The notes beneath the pieces are model-generated. The model was not told the origin of the DNA. It saw nothing but the letters and a program-made list of their open reading frames with translations, and did not search any database. From Bdellovibrionota bacterium (lineage in GTDB: Bacteria > Bdellovibrionota_C > UBA2361 > OMII01), in assembly GCA_044356215.1 (NCBI GenBank), contig JBIKWQ010000055.1:1-23694 (forward strand): a stretch of 23,694 bases of DNA, read 5' to 3'. Position 1 is the stretch's first letter; the number at the start of each line of letters is the position of its first letter. Below are positions 8,422-23,647 of this stretch, piece after piece. A program made the position numbers and the translations under genes.

Positions 8422-9786
8422 CTACAGTCCTCGTAACGAAACCTTAGCCTGCGCCACCCTCACGCGCAGTGCTGTTCTAACTCCAGACAGGCACAGCGCC
8501 TTCTTGGTTACCGTATGCAACGCCTCAACTCCTGTTGAGTTTAAGAACAGCGGAGCAGTCACCTCCGTGGGAGCCGCAGCGTGTTGCAAATATACTCGCA
8601 TCGCTTTAAGCGCTTCACCTCGCAGCCTGAAACGGCTTGGTTTAGCGGATGGTCGCGTAGATAAAGTTAGAACGCCACTATTACTATTGTAGTCCCCGCG
8701 CTTAACATTCACTAATGCTCCTAGAGGCATAGACCGCTGCGATAACACAGCCACCATCGCTCGATCTCGCAGGTCCACTAAGGTCTGCGGACTAATCTTC
8801 TTCAGGATAGCCACTCGGGATCGGCTTGATATCGATAGTCGTTTACCGCTTCCCTGTTCCTTCACTGGGCAGAACTGGTAAACCACCGAGTGATTCTCAA
8901 CCGGAGCCGGTGATGGTGTAGGTAGTGGCGTCGGCTGCAAGCGATCAGCGGAGTTGTCCCCATCGTCCTCGTCTGGCGGTGGCGTTGGACCTGCGCCGCC
9001 TCCGTTACGGTCCGGACTGGTTGGTGGACAGAGGGAAACATCTGGCTCTTGGATGTCTCCCGAGATCGATCCATCGGCCGGGATTACTCCTTTAATCGTA
9101 AAGTTATCCAATCTGACCCGGCCATTCACCTCGTCCATAAAGACCCCGAATGCTCGCACCATTCCAGCTGCTGGAAGCGGTGCTCCCGAGACCGCTGGTA
9201 GATTTGGCCCAAGTCCTGGAACATATGTCGTTGTGCCGTAGGTTAAGGCAGCTGGCGAAAACTGTGCTGATTCCCAGTATCCGGGCCTTGCCTGTCTCGC
9301 GAAATCGGACGAGATATACCAAACATTATCGATTAGGATCGCCAAATGAGTTTTGTTTGGCTGCCCCTGAATATCGATACCACTTAGTCTCTGCCTGTAT
9401 TGGATCAGCGCCTGACTATTTTTCAACATCCCGACGTCAAACTGAAACTCCGCCGTTAAAACGGTTAAACCGAATACAGGCTTAAACCAAAACGCATATC
9501 CCTGCGCCAAACCAAGGGGATTGCTGTTTACCGAGCTTCCGATATCAAGGGTCCCGTAACTAAACACTTTTAAGTTGCTGATTTTGGCTTGTGGTAACCC
9601 ACTAACCAGTCCAACCCAGTTGGTCTCAGCCGCTGCGTCTTTACCGATCGTTCCCGTGCAGTATCCAAAAGTCTCACGGTACAACGTGCGCGGCTCCGCT
9701 GTTGCCGTCGGCACCGCACTCAAGACCGCTCCTAAAATAAATGCTGCCCCAACGATATGCCACTTTCCGAGCGTTCTGTGCCTCAT
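8422..9786 (-). CDS. Secreted-type protein: signal peptide, beta-rich domain, Pro/Asp linker, degenerate tyrosine-recombinase-like C-terminus
   Basis: Purine-rich RBS; N-terminus MRHRTLGKWHIVGAAFILGAVLSAVPTATA; linker PTPPPDEDDGD...PTPLPTPSPAP; C-terminal LRDRAMVAVL...EALKAMRVYL...PLFLNSTG resembles XerC/D. Confidence 0.85.
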   Translation of the reverse strand: MRHRTLGKWHIVGAAFILGAVLSAVPTATAEPRTLYRETFGYCTGTIGKDAAAETNWVGLVSGLPQAKISNLKVFSYGTLDIGSSVNSNPLGLAQGYAFWFKPVFGLTVLTAEFQFDVGMLKNSQALIQYRQRLSGIDIQGQPNKTHLAILIDNVWYISSDFARQARPGYWESAQFSPAALTYGTTTYVPGLGPNLPAVSGAPLPAAGMVRAFGVFMDEVNGRVRLDNFTIKGVIPADGSISGDIQEPDVSLCPPTSPDRNGGGAGPTPPPDEDDGDNSADRLQPTPLPTPSPAPVENHSVVYQFCPVKEQGSGKRLSISSRSRVAILKKISPQTLVDLRDRAMVAVLSQRSMPLGALVNVKRGDYNSNSGVLTLSTRPSAKPSRFRLRGEALKAMRVYLQHAAAPTEVTAPLFLNSTGVEALHTVTKKALCLSGVRTALRVRVAQAKVSLRGL

Positions 9787-9953
9787 CTCTCTCTCCCTTT
9801 AGAAACTAAAACGTGTGAGCACATTTACCCTTATACTGAGCGGCTCCAAATGATCGGCATCATCAGGCGTGAGTGCTATTTGATGGTGTTGCTATTTTTC
9901 ACTTCCTTGATAATCTTTGTCCTGCAGACAGTATAATAAGCAAAAATACCACT

Positions 9954-11057
9954 ATGAAGACCAGCACCCTGAAAAAGCTCTCACCTGAACTTCGCTCAAT
10001 GATTATAAAGGACTCAAGTCGAGTAAAAAGCGGAGAGACCTTAGCGGCATCAGTAAAGAAGAGCTCTAAGGCGGTTACGGCATTTGCCGAGCGCACTCTT
10101 AATCACTGCAACGGCGGAGCTACCTTGCAGGCCGCGCACTGGTTAAACAAACACCTAGCTAGTGGTGGAAAGCTTGTCGTGACACTCGCTGGAGCGCTCA
10201 GCTCATTTCAAGTCGGTGTGATGCTAGCCGAACTGATCCGCAGGAATAAGGTGCACCTCGTCTCTGCAACCGGAGCGAACCACGAGGAGTCGTACTATCG
10301 TTATGTAGCTCACTCACACTACGCGTACATACCGCGCTACACAGAGCTGACCCCAACTCAAGAGGCTGAGCTAAGAGACGCGGGGTTAAGGCGCATCACT
10401 GACACGTTCCTGCCTGAGGACGAGAGCGTTAGAATTATGGAGCCACACCTTTTAAAAATGTGGAAGGCAGCAGAGAAAGCCGGTGAGAGCTACTATCCCC
10501 ACGAATATTTTAGGAGATTATTCAAGGAGCGCCTCATAACGCCTGACAAGGTGGCTAATCCCGCCGATTGCTGGGTTCACGCGGCCTACGAGAAGAATAT
10601 ACCGATCGTGATACCTGGCTTTGAGGATTCGACGATGGGAAATATCTTCGCCAGCTACACATACAACGGACCACACAAGCAAAAGGGATCAACCACGGTT
10701 AGCCCCTACGTGATGAAGGGCGGAATCGATTACTTTCACCTGATGTATGATTGGTATCTGAAGGAATCAAAAAAACATCCGATCGCTTTTTTACAACTAG
10801 GTGGTGGTATCGCCGCAGATTTCCCGATCTGCGTTGTTCCATCGATCAAGCACGATCTACATTTAACTGAGGCTCGCGACTGGGCTGGTTTTATTGAGAT
10901 AGGCTCCTCTCCTATGTCCTACGGCTCATATTCAGGAGCTGGCGGAAAAGAGAAGATAACTTGGGATAAGTTATCTACGGAGAGCTATTACCAGATTATT
11001 CAGAGCGACGTCACTGTGGCGTTTCCGTGGATTGCTGCTGTGTTGTTGGGGTTGTAG
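9954..11057 (+). CDS. Deoxyhypusine synthase-like protein (probable bacterial homospermidine/polyamine synthase)
   Basis: LAGALSS, SATGANHEE, RRITDTFLPE, LGGGIAADFPICVVP, SYGSYSGA...EKITWDK (Lys equivalent to the DHS WGK lysine). ATG 9954 preferred over GTG 9873; TATAAT at 9932-9937. Confidence 0.92.
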   Translation: MKTSTLKKLSPELRSMIIKDSSRVKSGETLAASVKKSSKAVTAFAERTLNHCNGGATLQAAHWLNKHLASGGKLVVTLAGALSSFQVGVMLAELIRRNKVHLVSATGANHEESYYRYVAHSHYAYIPRYTELTPTQEAELRDAGLRRITDTFLPEDESVRIMEPHLLKMWKAAEKAGESYYPHEYFRRLFKERLITPDKVANPADCWVHAAYEKNIPIVIPGFEDSTMGNIFASYTYNGPHKQKGSTTVSPYVMKGGIDYFHLMYDWYLKESKKHPIAFLQLGGGIAADFPICVVPSIKHDLHLTEARDWAGFIEIGSSPMSYGSYSGAGGKEKITWDKLSTESYYQIIQSDVTVAFPWIAAVLLGL

Positions 11058-19059: not shown

Positions 19060-19153
19060 ATGTTTAATCCGTAAAGTAATTCGCTCTTGAGAATAACCAG
19101 CGGCCGGATGAGAGGCAAGGAGAGGTTACTGTTAGCTAATGTGGCAGCCGCGG

Positions 19154-19181
19154 CAAAGCGGCGCAGGAGCGCCGCACTCCA
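19154..19181 (-). repeat. Single REP-like palindrome (TGGAGTGCGGCG...CGCCGCTTTG)
   Basis: 7-bp stem gcggcgc/gcgccgc with 4-nt loop, preceded on the minus strand by GGAGT. Confidence 0.55.
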
Positions 19182-19257
19182 TTTTTTGGCACAGCCAAGC
19201 TGTCATAGGAGAACTGCCGCTGCAGGGGCAAGCGAAGCGCCCCTTGCCCGTCATGAC

Positions 19258-19431
19258 ACCTGAAAACGGCAGTCGAGGGACAAGAAAATGGTGCAGGTGG
19301 ACAAAAGCGCGCAGGATTTTGATTTTTCGGCGCGCAACCCTGGCCCGCCAGGGTGAGCACCGAAAGGTCAAAAGCCAAAGCGATTTTGGTCACATGCGCC
19401 GTTTTCTGGCCCGAGACTGCCGTTTTCAGGT
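19258..19431 (+). mobile_element. 174-bp fold-back element B, copy 1 (MITE-like)
   Basis: Perfect 17-bp terminal inverted repeat acctgaaaacggcagtc/gactgccgttttcaggt; nested inner stems. Mobility is inferred. Confidence 0.6.
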
Positions 19432-19664
19432 TCTATCTTGGCGCAGCCAAGTTGTCATAGGAGATAACTGGGGGTGCAGGGGGAAAGCGAAGCGCCCCTT
19501 GCCCGTCATGACAATCTTGGCGCAGCCAAGTTGTCATAGGAGATAACTGGGGGTGCAGGGGGCAAGCGAAGCGCCCCTTGCCCGTCATGACAATCTTGGC
19601 GCAGCCAAGTTGTCATAGGAGATAACTGGGGGGTGCAGGAGGAAAGCCCCTTGCCCGTCATGAC

Positions 19665-19838
19665 ACCTGAAAACGGCAGTCGAGGGACAAGAAAATGGTG
19701 CAGGTGGACAAAAGCGCGCAGGATTTTGATTTTTCGGCGCGCAACCCTGGCCCGCCAGGGTGAGCACAGAAAGGTCAAAAGCCAAAGCGATTTTGGTCAC
19801 ATGCGCCGTTTTCTGGCGCGAGACTGACGTTTTCAGGT
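19665..19838 (+). mobile_element. 174-bp fold-back element B, copy 2
   Basis: Three substitutions relative to copy 1; offset 407 bp. Confidence 0.6.
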
Positions 19839-20107
19839 TCCATCTTGGCGCAGCCAAGTTGTCATAGGAGAGAAACTGGGGGGTGCAGGGGGCAAGCGAA
19901 GCGCCCCTTGCCCGTCATGACAATCTTGGCGCAGCCAAGTTGTCATAGGAGATAACTGGGGGTGCAGGAGGAAAGCCCCTTGCCCGTCATGACAATCTTG
20001 GCGCAGCCAAGTTGTCATAGGAGATAACTGGGGGTGCAGGGGGCAAGCGAAGCGCCCCTTGCCCGTCATGACAATCTTGGCGCAGCCAAGTTGTCATAGG
20101 CAAAAAA

Positions 20108-22702: not shown

Positions 22703-23503
22703 TTAATCGACCCCGCGCCGTGGCTCGGCGATCGTAGGATCTGACCCGAAATCAACCTCTCGTCCATCCGAAACTCCATCACCATCAGAATCAACCTTGA
22801 GAGGGTTTGAGCCAACGGCGATCTCCTTGTTATCTGGCAATCCATCTCCGTCGCTATCCATAGACTGCGGATTCATGCCACGCTTCTCCTCGGTTTCATC
22901 GCTTACTCCATCGCGATCGGAGTCGATTATCTGCTCGCCTTCACGCAATGACTCAGGAAGTAACGCCGCTGCTGAAACCCTATCCTCAAGACGGGTAACG
23001 ACCGCGCCTCTCGGGAATTGTCCCGCGTTGCTCGGCTCACTTCCGGAATCCTCCTCAAGCGAGTCGCTAAAGCCATCGCCGTCAGAGTCCTGCCATGATC
23101 CGTCCTCATCCTTTGAAAAAGACTCTCCTAACCAGTTAGTGGCGCCAAGCGCGCCGACAGCAGCTCCAGCGATAGCCGGAGCCTTATCTACAGGCGGCTT
23201 AGCTCCAAGCTTAGAGAGTTCCTGATATAGGTCGTCCTCGACCCCATTTTCCTCGGTAGAGACGTCATCATCACTGGATTGCTGCGCCCCTGAACTAAAT
23301 GATGATGAGCTAGAACTGGCCGAAGATGAGGAATTAGACGCACCGGTCGCGGTTACCGTAGCCGTAACGGTCCCGGTCGGCACAGAGGATTGGCCCCCAA
23401 CTTCATAGTCAGTTTGACATGCTTTAGTGCCGCTGACGACCACACCTACGGCGACCACCATTATCGCGCTTGCGCACCGATCTAACCAATTTCCTGCATT
23501 CAT
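22703..23503 (-). CDS. Putative lipoprotein/secreted protein with Ca-binding DxDxDG (bacterial thrombospondin type 3-like) repeats
   Basis: GAGGT before ATG 23503; hydrophobic [12 protein letters not shown] then TKAC; Ser/Thr-rich linker; [48 protein letters not shown]. Confidence 0.85.
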
Positions 23504-23647
23504 AGAAACCTCTGACCTAAGAAGAAAGTCTGACCCAATTAGGGAAATGGGGCAAAACATCCCTGCTGATTACATACACGCCAGGGGTAAGTATTGCCTT
23601 GCTGTCCTAGGCTACCCTGGACGGCCTCGTTTAGAAAGGGGCATCGC

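Follow-up and report, generated by a model that had tools for sequence, protein, structure and literature searches.

The gene at positions 8422 to 9786 of the window (the whole stretch of 23,694 nucleotides that was analysed) encodes a protein, P0001, whose C-terminal part retains the first half of the catalytic domain of a tyrosine recombinase. This half-domain is catalytically dead, maintained by purifying selection, and attached to what is probably an exported, CBM-like beta jelly roll. The family is real, conserved and apparently undescribed, and belongs to uncultured freshwater and sludge bacteria. We lean towards the view that the half-recombinase was exapted as a polycationic, sequence-unspecific anchor, by which extracellular DNA or an anionic polymer of the envelope would hold the exported domain. 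The features are as follows.

8422..9786, minus strand: whole gene, 454 aa (P0001), from the ORF call, with 115 relatives at E <= 0.001
9697..9786, minus strand: predicted Sec-type signal peptide, aa 1-30 (basic n-region, hydrophobic core, ATA^E), from the sequence and a family heuristic
9028..9696, minus strand: CBM-like beta jelly roll, aa 31-253, from a VIA structure match, cysteine-pair covariation and a dN/dS of 0.055
9658-9660 and 9028-9030, minus strand: jelly-roll cysteine pair C43 and C253, from covariation
8890..9027, minus strand: acidic Pro/Asp linker, aa 254-299, net charge -6, of low pLDDT
8425..8889, minus strand: 'Xer tail', dead, truncated tyrosine-recombinase half-domain, aa 300-454, charge +19, pI 11.4
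8869..8871, minus strand: Cys306, at the tail start, invariant (139/139)
8725..8727, minus strand: Pro354 at the catalytic Arg position, from the XerD alignment and family column counts
8491..8493, minus strand: Cys432, invariant, where the major-groove helix starts and integrases have Ser/Thr
8449..8490, minus strand: last helix, aa 433-446, equivalent to the Xer major-groove helix (XerH alphaK, aa 285-299; PMC5241119)
6508..8340, minus strand: P-type ATPase, conserved downstream neighbour, from the Pfam E1-E2 ATPase match; present in 29/35 loci

A scan for promoters and terminators gave no signal above that of shuffled sequences.

Taken alone, the last 162 residues gave a weak match to PF00589 (E = 0.082, Pfam), and a comparison of the tail with the PDB returned XerD as the sole match (E = 0.5). 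A profile made from 60 relatives matched, over positions 319-448, XerA (5hxy) at E = 5.2e-7, XerD at 1.1e-5 and another archaeal Xer at 2.6e-5; PF00589 was detected at E <= 1 in 31 of 60 members, the best at 1.2e-5. Modelled by AlphaFold at a pLDDT of 93, the tail retrieved XerA (E = 6e-4) and XerD (E = 8e-4) as first ranks in Foldseek, and was superposed on XerD 1a0p with a VIA Z of 11.6 and an rmsd of 2.8 over 127 residues. All 28 chains with Z >= 5, among 48,161, had the tyrosine-recombinase/topoisomerase IB fold. Homology and fold thus confirm the likeness to a XerC/D catalytic domain that the original prediction had read from sequence patterns. Its start was placed too late, at about residue 335: the domain begins near residue 300-306 (window about 8889). 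The N-terminal core-binding domain is absent, and the jelly roll occupies its place.

The structural match to the tail stops at XerD 244 and XerH 307 (tail model residues 21-155 aligned to XerH 180-307), just before the HxxR histidine of XerH, which is H309 (PMC5241119). No HxxR was found after C432 in any of the 139 members, only 8-33 residues remaining past this cysteine, and an HMM of the missing integrase half found no downstream match in any frame of 35 genes (best E = 0.06), while 23 control integrases matched it at E <= 1e-9. The earlier observation that the ORF ends before the HxxR and Tyr motifs, with no continuation, is confirmed. The other sign of inactivity then put forward, a Pro at the catalytic Arg position, is correct for P0001 (Pro354) and for 102 of 139 members in total, but 17 of 139 have kept the Arg, which is found in 20/20 integrases. 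Being truncated, all members are dead whatever residue stands there. Position 357, which corresponds to the acidic residue of RxxE, is Ala in P0001 and D/E in 3% of members, compared to 80% of integrases. At the beta2-beta3 turn, which carries the catalytic Lys, K/R is found in 36% of members at 379 and in 77% at the adjacent 378, and in 3-10% at 378/379 among 30 divergent members. P0001 is not an active tyrosine recombinase.

Relatives were collected as 115 clusters from one search and 83 representatives from another. Of the 190 proteins stored, 139 combine the two domains, 44 have the jelly roll without the tail, and the remaining 7 are fragments of the tail; the fusion is kept between proteins down to about 22-30% identity. 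A search of 124 genomes of the phylum found the gene in 31 of 34 congeneric genomes, sometimes split at contig ends; 32 congeners matched, but one of them (G022) was not counted because it matched via an integrase only. Five genomes of other genera also carry it (G034, G040, G049, G067 and G083). In the congener G024, 97% complete, neither the fusion gene nor the GSDH-PKD protein described below was matched; both are near-core in the genus.

Downstream, 29 of 35 loci carry the P-type ATPase, and 26 of 35 an exported protein with FG-GAP repeats. On the other side, in divergent orientation, lies a gene of the deoxyhypusine-synthase family (window 9873-11057, plus strand; PF01916, E = 2e-29), adjacent in 3 of 35 loci. 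Two further observations concern the rest of the window. Shadow ORFs at 19136-19393, 19506-19778 and 19585-19857 have repeated translations in common, as if an element were present in several copies between genes (19136-19860). The gene at 22703-23560, minus strand, encodes an acidic protein that starts like a lipoprotein and contains bacterial TSP3 repeats (PF18884, E = 7e-18).

The dN/dS ratio, estimated on 6 independent pairs among 30 genes (13 of 435 pairs being unsaturated), was lowest in the jelly roll (0.055), intermediate in the linker (0.10) and highest in the tail (0.14). This ratio, the synteny and the presence of the gene in 31 of 34 congeners show that purifying selection maintains the dead fold, at a locus that is stable in the host. 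The same fusion in 139 of 190 proteins and the ratio on the tail argue against a unique chimera evolving neutrally, which had been named as the outcome that would count against the original prediction.

In an unrooted tree, built without four integrases that were partial or duplicate and without five divergent tails, 40 tails were split from 16 integrases by a branch with 99/98 support. The position of all tails on one side of this branch fits a single capture event. The integrases that score best against the tail profile are those of mobile elements. With neither a root nor a wider sampling, the tree does not single out a donor. A mobile-element origin of the present gene was discarded: no phage matched, one plasmid integrase matched the tail only, and the context is stable. 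In three genomes (G022, G018 and G061), mobile integrases are adjoined by ORFs that look by eye like reverse transcriptases (L034:173-1237, L043:2234-2878 and L111:2090-3127, respectively). A separate clade of order-wide tyrosine recombinases of 370-390 aa with an intact active site (L004, L036-L039; 100/99 support) is possibly the chromosomal Xer of the lineage.

Several observations suggest that P0001 is exported. By our own crude heuristic, which also defined the set of exported proteins used below, a hydrophobic window of at least 1.5 was present at the N-terminus of all 130 proteins with a complete start; in the same 130 N-termini, a strict AxA was found in 96, a lipobox in 3 and a Tat motif in 0. 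The cysteines give a second indication, which the original prediction had missed. C306 and C432 are both present in 139/139 proteins, and exactly four cysteines follow the signal in 129 of 139. C43 and the linker cysteine are either both present (130) or both absent (4) in the 134 proteins that cover position 43, the partner being shifted in 6 of 130 and five N-terminally cut proteins being set aside. Such paired cysteines suggest disulfides and export, and two bonds, C43-C253 and C306-C432, would probably form. The host genome (G000) encodes a VKOR (C45:12647-13051, L172), as a domain within a 450-aa frame, as well as two secretins; searches of this genome found no match for DsbB and none for GspK (PF03934). 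Together with homology and dN/dS, the signal-like N-termini and paired cysteines agree with the earlier idea of an exported protein that reuses a dead recombinase subdomain.

The beta-rich domain recognized in the original prediction proved to be a jelly roll. Its model matched the N-terminal chain of Xyn10B (2w5f) with a VIA Z of 12.8 and an rmsd of 2.5 over 140 residues, and CBM15, CBM22 and CBM11 with Z of 11-11.5. The likeness to CBMs is one of fold only, at 9-12% identity, and no Pfam or NCBIfam family matched the domain. W57, W100, W156 and W171 are conserved. Its neighbours in the ESM Atlas, to be taken as leads only, were unnamed, laminin-IV-like and glycan-binding clusters (0.87-0.88); another search of the Atlas returned unnamed clusters and integrase fragments. 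On the strength of the modelled fold, the jelly roll may bind a glycan. The Pro/Asp linker that follows, also correctly anticipated, is acidic, and its length varies from 2 to 86 aa across the family.

The tail has become more basic than the domain from which it derives. Its net charge has a median of +20 in the family, compared to +11.5 in 20 integrase segments, some of which are partial. The gain did not occur at the catalytic site, where K/R is found at 354, 379 and 382 in 16, 36 and 37% of tails, compared to 100% each in integrases; it occurred at columns 316, 322, 324, 329, 351, 387, 437, 443 and 448, which are basic in 52-88% of tails and in 0-15% of integrases, and which are neutral or acidic positions in the latter. 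The major-groove helix has been retained: K/R stands at 441 in 55% of members, 73% of the 30 divergent ones and 75% of integrases, and at 438 in 60% of divergent members. Cys432 takes the position of the Ser/Thr that starts this helix in integrases, a residue that we take to touch a phosphate. The catalytic and DNA-contacting basic residues of integrases are thus mostly degraded, and this, together with the new charge, is more easily explained by unspecific binding of polyanions than by a recombinase grip that was preserved. Binding of extracellular DNA by the tail is, on these residue counts, plausible.

The tail is also found on an unrelated protein. In one genome of another genus (G034; C46, that is L040:3648-6575, minus strand), a Xer tail follows an exported GSDH beta-propeller/PKD protein in the same reading frame, with one TAA codon between them. 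It has both cysteines and a charge of +22, the GSDH-PKD body having a charge of -29, and it nests inside the family tree. In contigs from two runs of one study the TAA reads TCA, which leaves the fusion open, at a depth of 3-4; a third run has a gap there. Thirty GSDH loci were fetched, 7 of which ran off the locus. Of the 22 congeneric orthologues of the GSDH protein that are complete, 21 have a basic C-terminal segment (+9 to +21), mostly a basic PKD domain; the PKD domain of the G034 protein itself is neutral. Two metagenome scans and two protein searches, all insensitive, revealed no third passenger: the profile search of longer proteins gave 14 matches, all of them fusion members or integrases, and in the region search PKD repeats overwhelmed the output.

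Conversely, the jelly roll is found with other tails. Among 28 proteins scanned, 13 of which had been picked by eye for such tails, 5 distant relatives end in a PEP-CTERM above the cut-off and 1 in an IPTL-CTERM; the PEP-CTERM relatives match our profile at E = 1e-14 to 1e-27. Others carry a basic helical tail shared with a 1541-aa exported protein of the host genome (E = 5e-25), and some end in a long acidic domain. Neither an exosortase (PF09721) nor a PEP-CTERM-like tail was detected in the host genome, which is 96% complete, and P0001 itself had no NCBIfam match.

Basic C-termini were then counted in the host genome, as a last 100 aa of at least +10 on a neutral or acidic body, in proteins of at least 350 aa. 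They were found in 14 of 133 proteins predicted as exported by the heuristic, compared to 6 of 542 others (P = 1e-6); these 14 include P0001 itself and some that are not a simple passenger plus tail. Only 1 of the 133 reached +10 in a middle window. The basic-tailed proteins comprise subtilases, a reprolysin-type protease, and InlB-B-repeat, FG-GAP and Ig proteins, and their C-terminal basic domains are of unrelated folds. Exported proteins of this kind lie on contigs C38, C84, C99, C69, C100, C88, C30, C91, C63, C120, C9 and C18 (L160-L171). Taken together, the exchanges suggest that the lineage may possess several basic C-terminal tails that can replace one another, the Xer tail among them.

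These results can be assembled into a possible history and mode of action. The tail would have been captured once, from an integrase of the same phylum; the core-binding domain, the HxxR/H/Y half and most of the basic residues of the active site would have disappeared, while a disulfide and Lys/Arg residues were gained, and the tail would have become a compact grip for polyanions without sequence specificity. The protein would leave through Sec, shed its signal peptide and be oxidised at C43-C253 and C306-C432. The grip would then hold the glycan-binding-type jelly roll, on its flexible acidic linker, at the cell surface or in the matrix, the candidate targets being extracellular DNA, LPS and anionic exopolysaccharide. 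If the tail is a polyanion anchor, we consider the chances that DNA is its main natural ligand to be roughly even. A broader version, in which the phylum would display proteins on its surface or matrix via interchangeable polycationic C-terminal domains rather than sortase-type anchors, and the Xer tail, still able to grip DNA, would cross-link extracellular DNA to a glycan bound by the CBM-like domain, is offered more tentatively, and we would sooner doubt it than adopt it.

ComEA is an extracytoplasmic, sequence-unspecific DNA binder, and the tail might likewise be a dedicated DNA receptor, having kept a DNA-specific backbone grip for uptake in the periplasm or at the surface; the original prediction had suggested the binding of incoming DNA. 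The retained major-groove helix with K/R at 441 and 438 could be invoked for this, as could the presence of ComEC in 117 of 124 genomes and the lack of a PF12836 match in the host genome, and the corresponding domain of XerH touches mainly the DNA backbone (PMC5241119). The uptake reading is weakened, however, because the host genome encodes a separate HhH protein (C98:37195-37578, L159), homologous to PF12836-positive ORFs of relatives, because most genomes of the phylum have ComEC without the fusion, and because no competence genes were found among the neighbours; besides, the catalytic-site basic residues are degraded and the tail is found on a sugar dehydrogenase too. We regard such a receptor as unlikely. 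For the same reasons, namely an HhH homologue of the host's own and ComEC being mostly kept in fusion-less genomes, the tail was dropped as a replacement of ComEA. The HhH protein is small, highly divergent and membrane-anchored, has no Pfam match and lies near a cysteine-desulfurase-like gene; it is a possible ComEA of the lineage. Strong PF12836 matches in the phylum sit in frames of about 760-890 aa, which are not ComEA-sized.

About equally improbable is a sorting signal, that is, a folded basic tail read by a secretion machine or an outer-membrane receptor, with no polymer binding. The strictly C-terminal position, the same as that of PEP-CTERM/IPTL-CTERM in relatives, the unrelated basic tails on proteases and other exported proteins, and the two secretins would all suit it. 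However, the tails (PKD, InlB B-repeat, helical and Xer) share charge only, with no common fold or sequence, and electrostatic binding fits this better than recognition by a protein. We give slightly less credit still to a structural or protein-binding module, in which the tail would pack on the jelly roll or on a partner and its charge would be incidental. The fusion is retained over great divergence, the two-domain model has a pTM of 0.70, and the acidic linker could pair with the tail; yet both domains also occur with other partners, the linker length is highly variable, and the charge exceeds that of the ancestral domain. A complex prediction for jelly roll and tail gave a score of 0.00, which carries no weight either way. 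Finally, the gene could be a recent chimeric pseudogene, or encode a cytoplasmic DNA-binding regulator like MrpR, and the dead recombinase folds among the structural matches (MrpR, SroF, Ndc10 and QRICH1) are all, we presume, intracellular DNA or chromatin proteins. A recent chimera or frameshift is refuted by the 139 fusion relatives, the dN/dS of 0.14 and the failure of the missing-half HMM, and the synteny, the 130/130 signal-like N-termini and the invariant cysteine pairs count against both possibilities, which we consider very improbable. The reading that we favour is that of an exapted polyanion anchor.

If the broader version, with its DNA-gripping tail, were true, this would be the first recombinase fold at work outside the cell. 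A recombinase fold that is halved, given a probable disulfide and secreted as a mobile tail would represent an exaptation across compartments, and the basic C-terminal tails, lineage-wide in this Bdellovibrionota-labelled group, suggest an undescribed way of surface retention. No exported dead recombinase was found in the open-access literature; domain surveys in supplements or subscription journals could list the family.

Parallels with known systems can be drawn for each part of P0001. Its jelly roll has the fold of CBM22, CBM15, CBM11 and CBM4 (Z of 10-12.8), but no sequence-level family match, the identity being 9-12%. With ComEA it would share the role of an extracytoplasmic DNA binder without sequence specificity; its tail differs in not having the HhH fold (no Pfam match), a membrane anchor or a competence context. 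PEP-CTERM and IPTL-CTERM (TIGR02595 and TIGR04174) are carried by jelly-roll relatives at the very position of the Xer tail. P0001, by contrast, has no transmembrane tail and its host no detected exosortase, and anchoring here would be non-covalent. The recombinases XerC, XerD, XerA and XerH (PF00589; 1a0p, 5hxy and 5jjv) share with the tail the fold of the first half, the LRDxA, YL and PLF/LF motifs, and the major-groove helix. Unlike them, the tail is without the core-binding domain, HxxR, H/W and Tyr, and has mostly lost the Arg and apparently the Lys, whereas P0001 has two invariant tail cysteines, a higher charge, a signal peptide and a CBM-like partner. That the fold may outlive catalysis is also seen in MrpR/YopR, SroF, Ndc10 and DUF3504 (QRICH1, ZMYM and KCTD1). 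MrpR is described as an inactive protein of recombinase fold that acts as a DNA-binding repressor (PMC10516654), and DUF3504 as missing most of the catalytic tetrad and as a domain found for the most part in regulators of transcription (PMC3212892). The Xer tail is a half-domain, whereas MrpR has retained the two domains and recognizes a specific element within the cell; in contrast to proteins of this kind, it is a mobile C-terminal tail, carried by signal-peptide proteins and marked by invariant cysteines.
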